Source: a virus (Duplodnaviria; Heunggongvirae; Uroviricota; Caudoviricetes). Taken from it: 64,000 bases of DNA. A program made the position numbers and the translations under genes. The notes beneath the pieces were generated by a model that saw nothing but the letters and a program-made list of their open reading frames with translations, did not search any database and was not told the DNA's origin. Location of the stretch: the IMG/VR virus record IMGVR_UViG_3300029288_000059, positions 161,237 to 225,236 of that record; one strand, 5' to 3'. Position 1 is the stretch's first letter; every line of letters begins with the position of its first letter. Below are positions 30,066-63,840 of the stretch, piece by piece.

Positions 30066-30755
30066 ATGCCAGCACAAAGAAAAAAAACCGCCCGAGACCG
30101 CGCCTATGAAAGTGGTAACAAGGCTTCCATAGCATTCTATGAAGAGTGCGCCCGCCGTCAACGGGAGTACGATATTGCTTGCGAGTTGATAAAAGAAACT
30201 CAAAATGAGGAAATCTTATGGAACGCTACATTCAATCCACGCGAGTCTGTTAGAGAGGTGTTGGCAAGACAAAAACTCCTATCTCCTCGGATAGTAGAAA
30301 AACTACTATCAGACACCCGTAAAATTAAAATAGAGCTAGCAAACAACAAAGAAATATCGGCATTTCATATTTCTAAATTGTTAGAAGATGAAAATATTGA
30401 AGTAAGAATGTACGCGCATAATCGCGTACATGGAAAAATAAGCCTGCTGTATCCAGAGATAAGCTGGACAGCTATAGAATTTACACCGGACAGAGACTAT
30501 ACTGGTGAATGTATGGAGCAAGCACACCGAGGCTTACTACATATAAAAAAACATAGTTGGGACGGTGATTGTGGAGAAAAATCACGCTATTATTTTTATA
30601 TGGCAACTAAATATGTTGCCAATGTTTCAATTGATTTCGATAGCCAAGATTTATTATATCTTGGATCAGCATCTGATGCTAGTGAGGTCGAAGCATTCGC
30701 TATCTTCGAAAAAATAAAAGTTGACTACCCAGATATGATTCATGATTTTACATAA
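30066..30755 (+). CDS. hypothetical protein with helical (HEAT-like) repeats
   Basis: VREVLAR..L....L..D....V...A patterns. Confidence 0.5.
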   Translation: MPAQRKKTARDRAYESGNKASIAFYEECARRQREYDIACELIKETQNEEILWNATFNPRESVREVLARQKLLSPRIVEKLLSDTRKIKIELANNKEISAFHISKLLEDENIEVRMYAHNRVHGKISLLYPEISWTAIEFTPDRDYTGECMEQAHRGLLHIKKHSWDGDCGEKSRYYFYMATKYVANVSIDFDSQDLLYLGSASDASEVEAFAIFEKIKVDYPDMIHDFT

Positions 30756-31191
30756 TAAAAGGATTAACCATGCGCCTATTACTGACGATAATATTCGGCA
30801 TGATTATAACAAACTCAATCTATGTATGGACAGGGGAATTTCAATGACAATAAAATTAAACTTTCAATGCAACATAAATGGTGAATTAGAGGTATCTTTA
30901 GGATATGGAGATGCTTCAATAGGAGAAATACAAATAGAAGAAATCGAGGAATGTCGGAGACATACTGATTTTAGCGTTTTGCCGCCCAACCATTTTGAAC
31001 ACCTTCGCGAACTTGATTTTATAGACGTGGTTGTAATATGCCATTCTCTTAAAATGATTGGATATTTTTATCCAAGCAAAAAACTTGAAGAATTAACGGG
31101 GATAAACGAAGAATTCTTATTATTTATGGACGATTTTGAAATGGTAATTGTATCTAAAAATAAAGCATTTGAATTTTCTATTGAAGATTAG
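30742..31191 (+). CDS. hypothetical protein
   Basis: ORF; true start probably downstream. Confidence 0.5.
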   Translation: MILHNKRINHAPITDDNIRHDYNKLNLCMDRGISMTIKLNFQCNINGELEVSLGYGDASIGEIQIEEIEECRRHTDFSVLPPNHFEHLRELDFIDVVVICHSLKMIGYFYPSKKLEELTGINEEFLLFMDDFEMVIVSKNKAFEFSIED

Positions 31192-59380: not shown

Positions 59381-60772
59381 TTATTTTTTAGCTTTATTGA
59401 GAATCTTAGATAACATATCATTACGTTCTTTAACTTCATCCTCAATCTCAGAATTGGAAATACTAGGTGGTTCTATTATGTTTTTGGGTTTTGCCTGTGT
59501 TGTTCTTTTATTTTTAAGCCTATCTTCCCAATCAACCAAATCAGTTATACGCAATGTTTGTGGATTATAACACATTGTAATTTTAACATTTCTACTTCCA
59601 CTATTACGAGTCTTAAGAATAGTTAATTCTAATTCACCTCTATCGTCCATAGATAACGAATGATATAATGATATTAGATTATCACAAGTATGTGTTTTGG
59701 TTGCACCACCTGCTACTTTTGATAATGAAAATGATGATTCATCAACCCCATCCTTAGTAATTTGAGAGGCTGTAAAAATAGATGTTCGTTTTCCCGCTTC
59801 TGTCCTTGTAGCGGCAATACTTCTTAATTCTTCGGCAACGAGTTTATCTCTAATAGAAACATTTTCTAAACTAATATTTTTATCATTAGGTCTCATTAAA
59901 TCAGCATAGTCAACAATTATAATTTCAGGATGAGTATTGAATTGTATTTCATATTCTTGCAAGTAAGATTCAATTGTATTAGATGTCGTTTGTCCAGGCA
60001 AGTATTTAATTTGTATATGTTTAGTTTTACCTGTCTTACTAATCATTGCTAATTTAGTAGCAATTTGTTCCATAGATTTTTTATGGTCTGCTAATGTGAC
60101 ATCAGTCCATAGTGCATCAAAACGTTTAGCAACTAAATCTTGCGATAATTCATGTGTGATATATAATACGTCTAATCCTTCGTTAGCCCAATTAACGGCT
60201 AAGTTTTGTAATCCAACGGATTTACCACCACCCGTTGGTGCAACGAAGTAGTTCAATTCACCCCACATAAATCCACCACCTAAAATCTTATCTAATGTTT
60301 TCCAACCACTAGGCAATGATGCTAACGAGTTATTTGTACGTTCTAACCGTGTTAAGGGGTCTTCAAAGTAATTTAATCCTAAATCCCGTTGTAAAGAAGT
60401 TAATACAGCTTCTTTCATTAACTTTTCAATACCATCAGTTTGATTATTATTAATCCGTTTAGCACATTCTAATACGGCAGATGTACACGCTTTATGACGA
60501 CAAAATGATTCAATATAATCTAATGCAGCTACACGATGTCCACTATTGAACTCACCCAATCTTTCTATCTTAATACCCGTTTCTGCATATATTTGTTCAA
60601 CTGTTGGTAATACCGAATATTTTTCGGCATGAGCTAACATTAAGTTAATGCTTGTTTGTAACATTGGTTCGAAGTATGAAGATTTTAATATAGGTCGTGT
60701 ACGAGTGAATAATGATGCATCAGTTAACATCATTTGAATAATTAATAATTGCTCGTCCTTATTATAACTCAT
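59381..60772 (-). CDS. dnaB: replicative DNA helicase (gp41/DnaB-like)
   Basis: APTGGGKS, YITHEL, IVDYADLM, TASQ, KTRNS. Confidence 0.92.
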   Translation of the reverse strand: MSYNKDEQLLIIQMMLTDASLFTRTRPILKSSYFEPMLQTSINLMLAHAEKYSVLPTVEQIYAETGIKIERLGEFNSGHRVAALDYIESFCRHKACTSAVLECAKRINNNQTDGIEKLMKEAVLTSLQRDLGLNYFEDPLTRLERTNNSLASLPSGWKTLDKILGGGFMWGELNYFVAPTGGGKSVGLQNLAVNWANEGLDVLYITHELSQDLVAKRFDALWTDVTLADHKKSMEQIATKLAMISKTGKTKHIQIKYLPGQTTSNTIESYLQEYEIQFNTHPEIIIVDYADLMRPNDKNISLENVSIRDKLVAEELRSIAATRTEAGKRTSIFTASQITKDGVDESSFSLSKVAGGATKTHTCDNLISLYHSLSMDDRGELELTILKTRNSGSRNVKITMCYNPQTLRITDLVDWEDRLKNKRTTQAKPKNIIEPPSISNSEIEDEVKERNDMLSKILNKAKK

Positions 60773-60774
60773 TA

Positions 60775-61794
60775 TTAAACCCCAAACCAATCCATTGCAC
60801 GAATCTTAATTTCAATATCAGTATCTACTGTTGAATTTAAAATGTTAGACACGGTAAATAATCTTCCATATTTATGGGTAGCATCTTCAGCATCTTTTAT
60901 CTTTCTATCCCATGTTGGAAACGATACACTCCAACCATTTTGTATTGCTTGTTGTAATATGAACTTTCCATCTTTATCCCTATCAGGTAAAACAATAATC
61001 TTTTTACTTTTGGCAACTTCCTTAACCCATAATAGTTGCCGTTCATTTAATATACTCGTCATAATCCCACAACCGTCGATGGCTATGGCATCTAATGTAC
61101 CTTCAACTAAAATAACATACTTCCTATGTGGATTATCTAAATTATCAGCATTAAAAATAAACCCTTGTGGCGTGTTATTAATGTACCGAGGAGTGCTGTT
61201 ATTTGGTGGAGTACCAATATACCGAGCCGAGTAACCATACGTCCACTGCCTGTATTTTGCGGGCATTAAGATGTAATTCTCCATCTCATGTGTCCAATAG
61301 AATTCATAACTATCTAATAAGAATTTACTTCTTACATTATATAGGTACATCGCCGCATCTATTGCCCTACTAGGGGGGTTCTCTGATAGTAGTACTTGTT
61401 TTAATGGTAATGCAGTTGAAGGGAACGTCTTACCCTTCAAATCGTCTTTAAAGGTAGATAACGTAATCCCTTCCTTCTTTAATGTTTCAATAGAAGTTAA
61501 TGCATATAAATAACACTCTTTTAATTGTTCAGTAGTGACATTCATATACTTTAAGAATTGTTCAAGTTTCTTAGTTATACTTCTGCCGGGTGACCAACTA
61601 ACTTTATGCTTACAATTAAAACAATGATATGCAAATCCACCTTCAGTGGTAAACATTAACGCACCACGTCTTCTTACATCAGGACGTGATTGGCCATTAA
61701 AATGACAACAAGGACAATTAAACAAATACCAGTTGTTTTGGTAGTGATATCCACAAGGTATATTATCAAATAATACTTGTTGTATTACATTCAT
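60775..61794 (-). CDS. dnaG: DNA primase (gp61-like)
   Basis: CPCC..D.R.RG..YHCFNC Zn domain; TOPRIM LVEG.LDA; PD.DKDG; KD. Confidence 0.9.
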   Translation of the reverse strand: MNVIQQVLFDNIPCGYHYQNNWYLFNCPCCHFNGQSRPDVRRRGALMFTTEGGFAYHCFNCKHKVSWSPGRSITKKLEQFLKYMNVTTEQLKECYLYALTSIETLKKEGITLSTFKDDLKGKTFPSTALPLKQVLLSENPPSRAIDAAMYLYNVRSKFLLDSYEFYWTHEMENYILMPAKYRQWTYGYSARYIGTPPNNSTPRYINNTPQGFIFNADNLDNPHRKYVILVEGTLDAIAIDGCGIMTSILNERQLLWVKEVAKSKKIIVLPDRDKDGKFILQQAIQNGWSVSFPTWDRKIKDAEDATHKYGRLFTVSNILNSTVDTDIEIKIRAMDWFGV

Positions 61795-61800
61795 TCTATG

Positions 61801-62076
61801 TTACTCAACCACAATGCTTTCTTGCTCTTTTATCTGTTCGCGTGTGAGCCACATATATTCAATCGGTTTATTAATAATGAATGAACCATCCGTTTCATTG
61901 TAAAATTCTAACTTTAGATTATAGTGGTCGAAGTTGAAATCAACATAAAAACTATTTGTAGGGTGTTGAATTAAATCAATAAATTCATTAACTCGTTCAC
62001 CGATTACATATTCTAAATTACGAATTGCTTCTTGATGTTCGAACCGTTCATCCATTAATGCCTTATAATCAACCAT
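61801..62076 (-). CDS. hypothetical protein
   Basis: ORF with AGGA SD and upstream promoter. Confidence 0.5.
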   Translation of the reverse strand: MVDYKALMDERFEHQEAIRNLEYVIGERVNEFIDLIQHPTNSFYVDFNFDHYNLKLEFYNETDGSFIINKPIEYMWLTREQIKEQESIVVE

Positions 62077-62166
62077 CGTATATGTCCTTATTAATGTTTA
62101 AGTCAAAAACAATACTACATGATGAAATAGTAATTATCAAAATGATTATTTGTATTAAGGCAATAA

Positions 62167-62200
62167 AAAACAGGTTGACTGTTTGGAATCAACCTGTTTT
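62167..62200 (-). terminator. terminator ending the RNA cluster
   Basis: AAAACAGGTTGA/TCAACCTGTTTT. Confidence 0.78.
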
Positions 62201-62319
62201 AAATTATTAATACCCAAGTATTGTATTAGGAAAACATGAACGAAAACCGTTATACAATTTTGGTAGTTGGAAAGGTTAAGAACTACCATCCTCGAAGGAC
62301 TACGAACTCGGGCTAACTT

Positions 62320-62406
62320 TGGTGTACTCGGCAGGGCTCGAACCTACATCCTGCTGTCCAATAAAGGATACTTCTGACATAATTAAGACTATACGTGTTC
62401 ACACCA
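62320..62406 (-). ncRNA. degenerate tRNA-like element
   Basis: T-arm GTAGG-TTCGAGC-CCTGC and 3' ACCA, but no canonical D or anticodon arms. Confidence 0.4.
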
Positions 62407-62431
62407 CGCCGTTATACAAAAGGTTTAATAA

Positions 62432-62519
62432 TGGCGGAGAAAGTAGGATTTGAACCCACGGAAGATTTCCCTTCGCCAGTTTTCAAAACTGGTGTCATAA
62501 ACCACTCGACCATTTCTCC
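62432..62519 (-). tRNA. tRNA-Ser(TGA)
   Basis: GGAGAAA/TTTCTCC acceptor, CCAGT-TTTGAAA-ACTGG anticodon arm, long variable arm, GTGGG-TTCAAAT-CCTAC, encoded CCA. Confidence 0.95.
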
Positions 62520-62599
62520 GTATTCTTCTTAATTAAGGAATTAATATCAATGCACCGTACGTTACAATGAAATATAATAATATGCCTACTATTATATTT

Positions 62600-62671
62600 T
62601 ATGAACATTGGGTCTCGAACCCAACCCGCCTCCTCGAAGGGAAGCCTTCTTGCCCACTAAAATATATTCAT
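62600..62671 (-). ncRNA. 72-nt tRNA-like element with aberrant anticodon arm, inside a 24-bp inverted repeat
   Basis: Acceptor ATGAATA/TGTTCAT, D stem TTTT/AAGA, T arm TTGGG-TTCGAGA-CCCAA; anticodon arm has a 6-nt CTTCGA loop. Confidence 0.55.
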
Positions 62672-62694
62672 AAATTAATTCCTTAATTAAGAAG

Positions 62695-62929
62695 AATTGT
62701 AAGTCTATGTTTGAGGATTCAAGACCTCTCGAAGTTTCCACACATTAAAATTAATTCATTGGATTTTAATGTGCCTGTGTCCAACCACCACAGCGGACGT
62801 ATATTGAATATTTCCTATACGTTGGGGATTCGAACCCCTTGGGATATAGAGTTCATTATAAACTCAACCTTCATATACCTTTCGAGTATACCCTTGTTCA
62901 CCACCAAAGTTGAACATAAACTTACAATT
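62695..62929 (-). ncRNA. hairpin-enclosed structured RNA with a T-arm-like element
   Basis: About 17-bp flanking stem with a G-U pair on -; GGGG-TTCGAAT-CCCC; TATAC/GTATA and GAGTT/AACTC hairpins. Confidence 0.45.
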
Positions 62930-63005
62930 ATTGAATGTTCGACTTATCGTTTCATCAACGTGCGAACACAATTTTCGTTACATATTTACAGTTTCAAACA
63001 ACGTA

Positions 63006-63092
63006 TTTTATTAAACTATGTTCGCTTGACGTCCAGTTAATCATAGGAACCTCCTACTATACAAAGTCCGGAACGAACATAGTTTAATAAAA
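63006..63092. repeat. 19-bp perfect inverted repeat
   Basis: TTTTATTAAACTATGTTCG / CGAACATAGTTTAATAAAA. Confidence 0.85.
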
Positions 63093-63211
63093 CTTTACTT
63101 TTAAAACAACTTACAAACTTGTTTAACCTTGTTTGTATTTATAACATTAATACAATTTAAAACGTTTGTCAATAGGTTATTTACAAATATTTTAAATTAT
63201 TTTAAAAAGTT

Positions 63212-63268
63212 GTGAGTGACTATGTTTGTAGAATTTTAAGACTAATATAAAATTACATAGTCACTCAC
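63212..63268. repeat. 14-bp perfect inverted repeat
   Basis: GTGAGTGACTATGT / ACATAGTCACTCAC. Confidence 0.85.
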
Positions 63269-63402
63269 TTCTTTTAGCTTACATTTATATAATTTATTAG
63301 GAGATTATGAATTTAGATGACAAGTCTAAACCCATAAATAAACAAGTTTCCTTGTCTATAAATTAACATTAGTACAAATTAAGACATCTGTCAATAGGAT
63401 TT

Positions 63403-63840
63403 TTAAATTATTTTAACATTTTCAAATTCAAACGTTAATGTGTGTTCTACTAAATCCATCTTTGTATAATCATAATTACAAGTATGTCCTATTAATTCAC
63501 TATCACCGAATAACACGGATTTCAAGATTTTACCTTTTGAATTTAAACAATTCAATTTTACGTCCAACAACTTAGTGAATGCACTAATACACCCAACTAC
63601 TTCGAAATTACAAGTTTCACGTAAAACAATAGTAATCGTTTTGTTAAACATATCATATGAGAAACATCTCATATTACTCACTATTGCGCCATTTGGGTCG
63701 ATATCAGTACCACCTTCATATGTGGATACATGAGTAAATCTTTGTAATGATGTTTGTCCCGTAAACAATTCAATATCAAAATGGTGAGTTAATTGAGTAG
63801 CAACGAATTTTGTTTTAGCTTCTTCTTTTGTCATTGTCAT
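63403..63840 (-). CDS. tail-tube (gp19)-like fold protein, divergent
   Basis: TITIVLRE ... KVKLN.LN..G ... YDYT....VEHTLTFEFE resembles the gp19 pattern; TAAATA late-like motif upstream. Confidence 0.45.
   Translation of the reverse strand: MTMTKEEAKTKFVATQLTHHFDIELFTGQTSLQRFTHVSTYEGGTDIDPNGAIVSNMRCFSYDMFNKTITIVLRETCNFEVVGCISAFTKLLDVKLNCLNSKGKILKSVLFGDSELIGHTCNYDYTKMDLVEHTLTFEFENVKII

Follow-up and report, generated by a model that had tools for sequence, protein, structure and literature searches.

Among the small RNAs that imitate transfer RNA (tRNA), the Y RNAs of the YrlA class (RF02553) have the domain order variable hairpin (V), T arm, acceptor hairpin and D arm (PMC4201824). The length of the acceptor hairpin of M. 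smegmatis YrlA, 7 base pairs (bp), permits a cut by RNase P and subsequent CCA addition (Chen et al. 2014, PMC4201824), and D. radiodurans Yrn1 has an "anticodon loop" of six nucleotides (nt) (PMC4201824). The means by which jumbo phages repair tRNA have been reviewed, Ro/TROVE proteins and their tRNA-like partner RNA among them (Iyer et al. 2021, PMC7824862). Here we analyze a minus-strand array of tRNA-like RNAs in a 64,000-nt stretch of DNA, positions 161,237 to 225,236 of the IMG/VR virus record IMGVR_UViG_3300029288_000059; this whole stretch is called the window, and coordinates refer to it unless stated otherwise. The source virus is a Rak2/GAP32-type jumbo phage: the record (289,811 bp, linear, about 31% G+C, 79% complete according to CheckV) encodes a major capsid protein with 64-68% identity to those of Vibrio phage 2.275.O, Cronobacter phage GAP32, Pectobacterium phage CBB and similar giant T4-related phages. 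Judged from its sequence, the array is fairly probably an early-expressed, protein-free RNA operon that combines one decoding tRNA with paralogous, tRNA-derived RNAs that do not decode.

The usual view of phage tRNA genes is that they serve as codon suppliers or replace tRNAs that host defences have cut; in the present case a phage with its own CCA-adding enzyme has hardly any decoding tRNA yet maintains several predicted non-decoding, tRNA-shaped RNAs on long duplex stalks. Two further systems invite comparison. The tRNA cluster of T4 yields dimeric tRNA precursors and the stable RNAs C and D, which are processed by RNase P and in some cases depend on CCA addition. Like the array it mixes real tRNAs with stable RNAs of unassigned function in tandem units a few nt apart, but the T4 dimers pair their own acceptor strands, and the cluster lacks both the swap and the 19-24-bp stalks. 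Long flanking duplexes with RNase III sites release the enclosed RNA in rRNA operons and T7 early RNA; the array likewise has serial duplex-enclosed units in one transcript, but what its duplexes enclose, as predicted from the sequence, are tRNA look-alikes.

Organization of the array

The array runs as a single unit of about 960 nt from promoter P2 to an intrinsic terminator and has no protein-family match; the six open reading frames (ORFs) inside the stretch match neither Pfam nor PHROGs, in agreement with the first-pass annotation of this DNA, which had called it non-coding. In the direction of transcription its parts are as follows.

63144-63175, minus strand: promoter P2 of the array, with TTGACA at 63172-63167, a 17-nt spacer and TAATGT at 63149-63144
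63006-63092, minus strand: hairpin M1, a perfect 19-bp stem with a 49-nt loop
62695-62929, minus strand: module B, two tandem paralogous tRNA-like units (helices verified by coordinates)
62522-62697, minus strand: module A+, a perfect 24-bp stem enclosing tRNA-like A and an AU-rich hairpin
62600-62671, minus strand: tRNA-like A, a complete cloverleaf with an Rfam tRNA match
62432-62519, minus strand: tRNA-Ser(UGA), called by ARAGORN and by Rfam (57.7 bits), CCA encoded
62320-62347, minus strand: core of module C, in which 7 nt, A and CCA come after a canonical T arm (62347-62331)
62262-62300, minus strand: a pair of small hairpins within C, one (62300-62288) with 4 bp and the loop UUCGA, the other (62287-62262) with 7 bp and 12 nt in the loop
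62162-62205, minus strand: intrinsic terminator of the array, a G+C-containing hairpin followed by six U (inverted repeat, minimum free energy fold)

P2 is, by its boxes, a predicted promoter of the sigma-70 type, and a TATAAATA box overlaps it at 63143-63136. The inverted repeats on which the first-pass annotation had built the array, those of 24, 19 and 14 bp (all perfect) and that of about 17 bp, were recovered at their sites with strong z scores when minus-strand folding energies were compared with those of dinucleotide shuffles. The score is -7.8 for the whole unit, -6.8 for M1 (63097-63001; all 19 pairs between 63006-63024 and 63074-63092 are Watson-Crick), -5.0 for module B (62932-62692) and -8.6 for A+ (62697-62522; 24/24 Watson-Crick pairs between 62522-62545 and 62674-62697); a fold of the entire transcript gave implausible long-range pairs and was left unused. 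The duplexes of 24, 19 and 17 bp have the length that RNase III needs in a substrate (uninterrupted double-stranded RNA of about two helical turns); the polycistronic precursor earlier postulated for this region would correspond to a single promoter-to-terminator unit whose stalks would suit that enzyme. A (C)TATGTT/AACATA(G) motif, earlier ascribed to the stems in general, is present as ACUAUGU/ACAUAGU in the stems 63268/63212 and 63092/63006 but only in variant form in 62929/62695. Of the words GGTTCGA (13 minus-strand copies in the 290-kb genome) and CTTCGAG (nine), three copies each fall here; both are strongly enriched at the array, and for CTTCGAG this recurrence had already been noticed. 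A MITE-like mobile element (miniature inverted-repeat transposable element) at 62522-62697 was rejected: 290 kb hold no other copy, and no direct repeat flanks the 24-bp repeats.

The minus strand folds more stably than the plus strand in all modules but M0, the terminator hairpin of a neighbouring small RNA described below; for M1, B and A+ the advantage is 8-13 kcal/mol, and the G.U pairs in A, in stem X of B and in the B helices D1 and AC2 are possible in minus-strand RNA only. This asymmetry bears on a reading of the locus as a DNA-level element (a replication origin, a cruciform or a protein-binding site) beside the primase and helicase genes, in which any likeness to tRNA would be incidental. 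The array does lie about 360 nt upstream of the primase gene, its 24-, 19- and 14-bp repeats are perfect at the DNA level, and the region is A+T-rich and holds promoters, as the R-loop origins of T4 do. Such an element is nevertheless very improbable, since both the G.U pairs and the difference in folding energy point to one RNA strand, tRNA junction geometry and T and D loops are meaningless in DNA, a true tRNA is embedded in the unit, and the cumulative GC skew has no inflection at the array.

Module B: two tRNA-like units with exchanged acceptor strands

Module B consists of two consecutive units whose acceptor strands pair with each other rather than within each unit, an architecture that the first-pass annotation had missed. 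Its helices are the following.

62929-62913 / 62711-62695, minus strand: closing stem X, 17 bp
62909-62892, minus strand: D1, 5-bp stem and 8-nt loop with GG, 3 nt after the X 5' strand
62890-62874, minus strand: AC1, 5 bp and 7-nt loop, 1 nt after D1
62865-62849, minus strand: V1, variable hairpin
62839-62823, minus strand: T1, an A.A and four G-C pairs with loop UUCGAAU, followed directly by the 3'-type strand of Y
62822-62797, minus strand: acceptor hairpin Y, closed, 7/7 Watson-Crick pairs in trans
62793-62775, minus strand: D2, 5 bp and 9-nt loop with GG
62774-62740, minus strand: AC2, 12 bp and 11-nt loop
62729-62712, minus strand: T2, degenerate, an A.A and four pairs with an 8-nt loop, followed directly by the X 3' strand

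Unit 1 has the order X 5' strand, D1, AC1, V1, T1 and the 7-nt strand Y3', and unit 2 the order Y5', D2, AC2, T2 and X 3' strand. Pairing of acceptor strands in cis reaches just 2/7 inside each unit, against 7/7 in trans for Y and 17/17 in trans for X, one of the latter being a G.U pair present in minus-strand RNA only. Connector lengths come close to those of a tRNA: the T stem adjoins the acceptor directly (0 nt), the acceptor lies 2-3 nt from the D stem according to the way D2 is drawn, and a single nt separates the D stem from the stem after it. The inner head of B, with a V hairpin, a T arm, a sealed 7-bp acceptor hairpin, a D arm and a long hairpin in this order, is in the predicted fold a circularly permuted cloverleaf of the YrlA type. 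Rfam RF00005 gave no match for B or C; a site at 62961-63025 scored 20.3 bits against Rfam tRNA, below the gathering score of 29.

AC1 has a 7-nt loop, but C at position 33. UCGA is present in all the "anticodon" loops of A and the B units, and the CUCGAA of the AC1 loop (62886-62881) is exactly complementary to the word UUCGAG, which occurs in B (62733-62728), in A (62638-62633) and in C (62296-62291), a complementarity that might allow loop-loop contacts.

The tRNA-Ser and the tRNA-like A

The array had been credited with one true tRNA-Ser, and tRNA-Ser(UGA) is its sole decoding tRNA: it begins 2 nt past the 24-bp stem and has a normal 7-nt anticodon loop with U33. The 24-bp stem belongs to module A+, which adjoins B with a 3-nt overlap, and the cloverleaf enclosed in it, A, scores 38.9 bits against Rfam tRNA (RF00005; gathering score 29). 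The acceptor (7 bp), D (4 bp), anticodon (5 bp) and T (5 bp) stems of A keep 21/21 pairs, and U8, GG in the D loop, a 4-nt variable loop, the T loop UUCGAGA and the discriminator A are retained. The anticodon loop has six nt (CUUCGA) in place of a 7-nt loop with U33 and a readable anticodon, and ARAGORN reports a 2-base "anticodon". CCA is not encoded in A, and its discriminator and the next base are paired in the precursor. The T arm of A (62624-62608) is canonical, and together with those of B (62839-62823) and C (62347-62331) it makes up the three T arms without a normal anticodon arm that had been picked out before.

A might still be a working tRNA, either with a 4-bp anticodon stem and a 7-nt loop CCUUCGA that reads GAA/GAG or as a frameshift-promoting tRNA with a 6-nt loop; its score lies above the Rfam threshold, its other tRNA features are intact, and the phage has its own CCA-adding enzyme. 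We hold this to be highly unlikely. The 7-nt reading needs a G.G mismatch, leaves no residue 26 and puts C in place of the near-universal U33, and the paired discriminator also speaks against a working tRNA. The recurrence of UUCGAG in two non-tRNA contexts, B and C, moreover suggests a shared motif and not an anticodon.

Paralogy and compensatory changes

The 5' halves of the two B units are identical at 21 of 31 positions (z 4.4; none of 500 shuffles reaches this value), and their T arms plus acceptor strands at 18 of 26 (z 4.7). A is similar to unit 1 (z 2.5), and in the same comparison tRNA-Ser resembles neither B unit. From these similarities A and both B units are duplicates of one tRNA-like ancestor; as to the origin of that ancestor, blastn of A and the B units against 205 tRNAs of related phages matched T arms only.

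Between the duplicates, helices are preserved while their bases change. At D-stem pair 3 one B unit has U-A where the other has G-C, at T-stem pair 2 a G-C stands against an A-U, and a comparison of the acceptor stems X and Y shows both bases changed in five of seven pairs. The anticodon arms of A (5 bp, 6-nt loop), unit 1 (5 bp, 7-nt loop) and unit 2 (12 bp, 11-nt loop) are the least conserved part, and none of their loops copies a natural anticodon loop. This pattern, drawn from paralogues within one genome, is as would be expected if the top half formed by the acceptor, T and D helices were under selection and decoding were not; maintenance of these helices by compensation beside divergent anticodon arms argues for selected mimicry of the tRNA elbow and against simple decay. 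The proposal of the first-pass annotation that the array supplies decoys for anticodon nucleases is weakened by the same evidence, since the variability of the anticodon arms makes such decoys less likely than mimics for an elbow-recognizing factor.

Relatives, decay and the points against an RNA operon

Five complete IMG/VR genomes, G001 to G005, with capsid proteins about 60-65% identical to that of the record, served as relatives. ARAGORN, run on 26-65-kb stretches of each, found 23-53 tRNAs per genome, against one canonical tRNA in the record, although the latter encodes a CCA-adding enzyme; the missing 21% of the record could still hold tRNAs. By synteny with G001, the tRNA block of the relatives lies between the capsid gene and the homologues of the genes at 258-261 kb of the record, where the record itself has 21 kb without tRNAs. 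At the position of the array, the space upstream of the G001 primase gene is a mere 84 nt and holds no tRNA, which indicates that the array is lineage-specific at this site; intact tRNAs at the same position in relatives, which the earlier analysis had named as the sign of simple decay, were not found in G001. An alignment-based primase search returned 80 loci with 30-36% identity, none with a tRNA upstream of the primase gene; two close primase relatives have 99% and 87% identity, the latter from a 1-kb contig of a JGI metagenome.

Four of the five relatives (G001 to G004) encode a circularly permuted, two-piece transfer-messenger RNA (tmRNA) according to ARAGORN, for example at 30533-30892 of G002, with tags such as ANADTFALVA, and G001 and G003 have tRNAs with the anticodon CUA, labelled "Pyl" by ARAGORN. 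Module C shares with these two-piece tmRNAs its 3' geometry of T arm, 7 nt, A and CCA, and B would likewise become a two-piece RNA held by base pairs if RNase P cut its acceptor loop. A two-piece tmRNA, however, has a tag frame and an acceptor partner, and C has no tag reading frame and no contiguous 5' partner. A tmRNA identity was rejected on these grounds and because the tmRNA option of ARAGORN found none in the genome; neither ARAGORN nor Rfam called a tRNA or tmRNA at C, and the Rfam search for tmRNA gave just a 15-nt match to a T loop. C is probably a vestigial 3' end of a tRNA or tmRNA. The word GUGUUCG (62969-62963) could pair with its acceptor strand (62320-62330) and would then give G3.U70, A73 and CCA, the identity set of alanine and tmRNA, but across 640 nt; with about 0.36 such words expected per kb, this pairing is treated as chance. 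An exact 11-nt direct repeat (62247-62257 and 62409-62419, spacing 162 nt) brackets C with borderline significance.

Several results weigh against an RNA operon of the kind proposed here. The 217-nt stretch around C has no excess structure (z +0.16), the T2 loop of 8 nt departs from the T-loop consensus, and 62936-62968 (M2), formerly counted among the hairpin modules, folds at chance level (z -0.6), so that part of the locus may be decaying. The perfect 24-bp and 19-bp Watson-Crick stems are ambiguous and also fit a recent inverted duplication at the DNA level. Searches for a second array were negative throughout: in megablast and blastn, the tRNA-Ser was the sole part of 62100-63450 with a match among 50,697 phage records; the pattern CCTTCGAGG-N8-12-GGTTCGAG had 22 chance matches in G+C-rich coding DNA of IMG/VR and no array; a metagenome scan with the 3' end of tRNA-Ser gave 69 ordinary tRNA-Ser loci, none with an array; and the genome itself has no other copy. 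As no homologue of the array was found, the comparative evidence consists of paralogues within one genome and not of covariation across species. Nor is a partner protein evident, as the 79%-complete, 290-kb record has no gene for TROVE (PF05731), DUF7788 or RtcB, and the 145-amino-acid protein encoded just upstream is an ORFan with zero homologues among 5.8 billion proteins.

The most direct competing account is that the array is the decaying remnant of a tRNA cluster, left when this lineage lost the dozens of tRNAs normal for the clade, with A, B and C as pseudogenes. The tRNA-rich relatives, the state of C, T2 and M2, and the loop of A, which resembles a 1-nt deletion, would all fit such a history. 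We nonetheless regard it as unlikely: the tRNA block of the relatives lies elsewhere, G001 having only the 84 nt here, and decay would not create trans pairing at 7/7 and 17/17 positions while cis pairing is lost (2/7), would not yield compensatory D, T and acceptor changes between duplicates, and would not build stalks of 24 and 19 perfect pairs whose z scores reach -7 to -9; A, for its part, keeps all 21 stem pairs.

Comparison with YrlA RNAs and their relatives

The YrlA class is the closest known kind of RNA; as folded here, the array shares its design principle but departs from it in score, Ro60 gene, 5' motif and permutation point. B has the YrlA order of V hairpin, T arm, sealed acceptor hairpin and D arm on a long closing stem, and YrlA Y RNAs, like the array, occur among tRNA genes in phages. 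The acceptor hairpin of B is exactly 7 bp, as described for M. smegmatis YrlA, and the 6-nt anticodon loop of A is like that of D. radiodurans Yrn1. Against this, the genome has no RF02553 match at E <= 1 (family criterion 69 bits), no Ro60/TROVE gene lies within about 4 kb of the array on the same strand, where the neighbours have no such domain, and the motif GNCGAAN0-1G is absent from the 5' end of B, the nearest words, CUCGAAAG in the AC1 loop and GUCGAACA at 62944, being misfits. Whereas YrlA is permuted at the anticodon stem, B is opened at the variable region and keeps a closed hairpin at the anticodon position, and it arose from two tandem units with swapped acceptor strands.

RNAs nearer to YrlA exist in the relatives, where many T-arm elements lie outside tRNAs. 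Among them are modules in which a YrlA core, composed of T arm, sealed acceptor hairpin and D arm, is borne by a conserved "handle" of a stem and a CAGCAA box, with sub-threshold RF02553 matches of 28-42 bits; they were found in all four relatives searched, G001 to G004. Examples are listed below.

L197:46-1600 (G004), minus strand: YrlA-core modules on the handle
L195:1420-1640 (G003), minus strand: YrlA-core modules on the handle
L196:1470-1720 (G001), minus strand: YrlA-core modules on the handle

In G004 one such module lies directly upstream of the gene for a 481-amino-acid DUF2828/DUF7788 protein with a weak VWA match, a Ro60-like architecture. A Ro60-like DUF2828/DUF7788 gene is present in all five relatives and absent from the record; Pfam TROVE has no match in the five. 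A crude scan with a regular expression for the handle counted 4-6 in the tRNA regions of G001 and G002 and 0-1 in those of G003 to G005, though modules are visible by eye in G003; in the record it gave two distant matches that look like chance. We know of no publication on handle-type Y-like RNAs with a Ro60-like protein. The presence of YrlA-core modules among the tRNAs of the relatives indicates that tRNA mimicry is usual in the clade.

The handle-type RNAs resemble B in belonging to the same clade, in their permuted head of T arm, acceptor hairpin and D arm and in being interleaved with tRNAs, but they have a short stem, the CAGCAA box, an A-rich 3' side and a protein gene. The array was rejected as a handle-type RNA, having neither the closing stem with CAGCAA nor the A-rich run with UG nor a DUF2828/DUF7788 gene, and the record as a whole has no permuted tmRNA, RF02553 match, DUF7788 gene or handle-type RNA.

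These comparisons bear on another account, in which B, and perhaps A+, would be a ribonucleoprotein scaffold of the Y-RNA type that binds a Ro60/Rsr-like ring or another protein through its long stem, while the tRNA head recruits an exonuclease or repair enzyme, as YrlA does with Rsr. The YrlA order of the B head on its long closing stem (PMC4201824) speaks in its favour, as do the DUF2828/DUF7788 genes of all five relatives and the YrlA-core RNAs of four. It is nonetheless quite improbable, given that the genome lacks an RF02553 match, TROVE and DUF7788 genes (in a 79%-complete record) and the handle, that B lacks the GNCGAAN0-1G motif at its 5' end, and that B is permuted at the variable region instead of the anticodon stem.

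Proposed processing and function

It is proposed that the RNA operon is transcribed early by the host RNA polymerase into a precursor of about 960 nt, in which RNase III would cleave the 17-24-bp duplexes in the manner of rRNA operons and of the early RNA of T7. RNase P would process tRNA-Ser and A and perhaps also open the loop of the 7-bp acceptor hairpin in B, in the way described for M. smegmatis YrlA, and the phage CCA-adding enzyme may complete the 3' ends. The mature mimics would then occupy or recruit a factor that recognizes the elbow and the acceptor end of tRNA and not the anticodon.

The CCA-adding enzyme (PF01743, E 1.8e-34) is encoded on the plus strand at positions 156668-157819 of the record, 4.4 kb before the window, and its gene is preceded by a promoter of the CCTATTGACA class, as in P1 (the promoter of the neighbouring small RNA) and P2, together with an A+T-rich upstream element. 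A much bolder idea, to which we give little credence, is that B is a previously undescribed tRNA mimic in which the exchange of acceptor strands produced a two-headed RNA, converted by RNase P and the phage CCA enzyme to a two-piece RNA with a free CCA end; with A, it would block or divert an elbow-recognizing host factor, such as a tRNA-targeting defence nuclease, without a Ro60-type partner.

If the RNAs are stable, they would show that a simple tandem duplication with exchange of strands can give rise to YrlA-type mimicry, and that such mimicry can operate without a Ro60-like partner encoded nearby. A and B, with 70 and 235 nt, are compact test objects for any host or phage factor that reads the tRNA elbow.

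Neighbouring genes and transcription units

All genes surrounding the array are on the minus strand. The features next to it are listed here.

59381-60790, minus strand: DnaB-type helicase gene
60775-61794, minus strand: primase gene
61801-62076, minus strand: ORF of 91 amino acids between the array and the primase gene
63200-63359, minus strand: small RNA unit of about 155 nt, with two 5' hairpins, a single-stranded UCUCCU (63304-63299) and the terminator hairpin M0 with a U run (minimum free energy fold)
63366-63397, minus strand: promoter P1, with a CTATTGACA -35 box, TTGACA at 63394-63389, a 17-nt spacer and TAATGT
63403-63840, minus strand: ORF of 145 amino acids beyond the array (upstream), without family match

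The 91-amino-acid gene is the only one between the array and the primase gene. Pfam gave no DUF7873 match for the gene at 63403-63840 or for eleven further neighbours, and an exact-peptide search of IMG/VR with the primase and the 145-amino-acid protein gave no match.

P1 and P2 have a common 57-nt block with 75% identity and belong to a CTATTGACA -35 family of 17 copies genome-wide, against about 3.6 expected. Promoters near 63170 and 63390 and a terminator had been predicted before, and all three are present in the sequence, but the one at 63390 (P1) drives a separate small RNA and not the array. The hairpin at 63212-63268, formerly taken as a module of the array, is M0: its core (63212-63225 with 63255-63268) has 14/14 Watson-Crick pairs and can be extended to 21 nt at 90%, and its z score is -8.4 (63275-63205). 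Since M0 has a U run and lies upstream of P2, it is the terminator of the small RNA from P1 and stands outside the array.

Some minor observations concern tRNA-Ser and M1. A 25-nt pattern from the tRNA-Ser 3' end (24 specified bases and one N) found tRNA-Ser genes on 69 metagenome contigs, many of them from gut and fermenter samples and the lowest with 26-29% G+C, a weak hint at the host. An attenuator reading of M1 and M2 was rejected, as no U run follows M2, which folds at chance level. The M1 loop holds AGGAGG (63055-63050), a strong ribosome-binding word, and after a gap of 5 nt an AUG (63044) starts a frame of 16 codons, which runs from the loop through the 3' arm of M1 (region 62994-63055); this frame could be due to chance, or be a leader peptide or a ribosome-binding-site mimic. 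The UCUCCU in the single-stranded middle of the P1 small RNA is an anti-Shine-Dalgarno word, and with its flanks it has 8-base complementarity to the AGGAGG region of the M1 loop (about 63056-63049).

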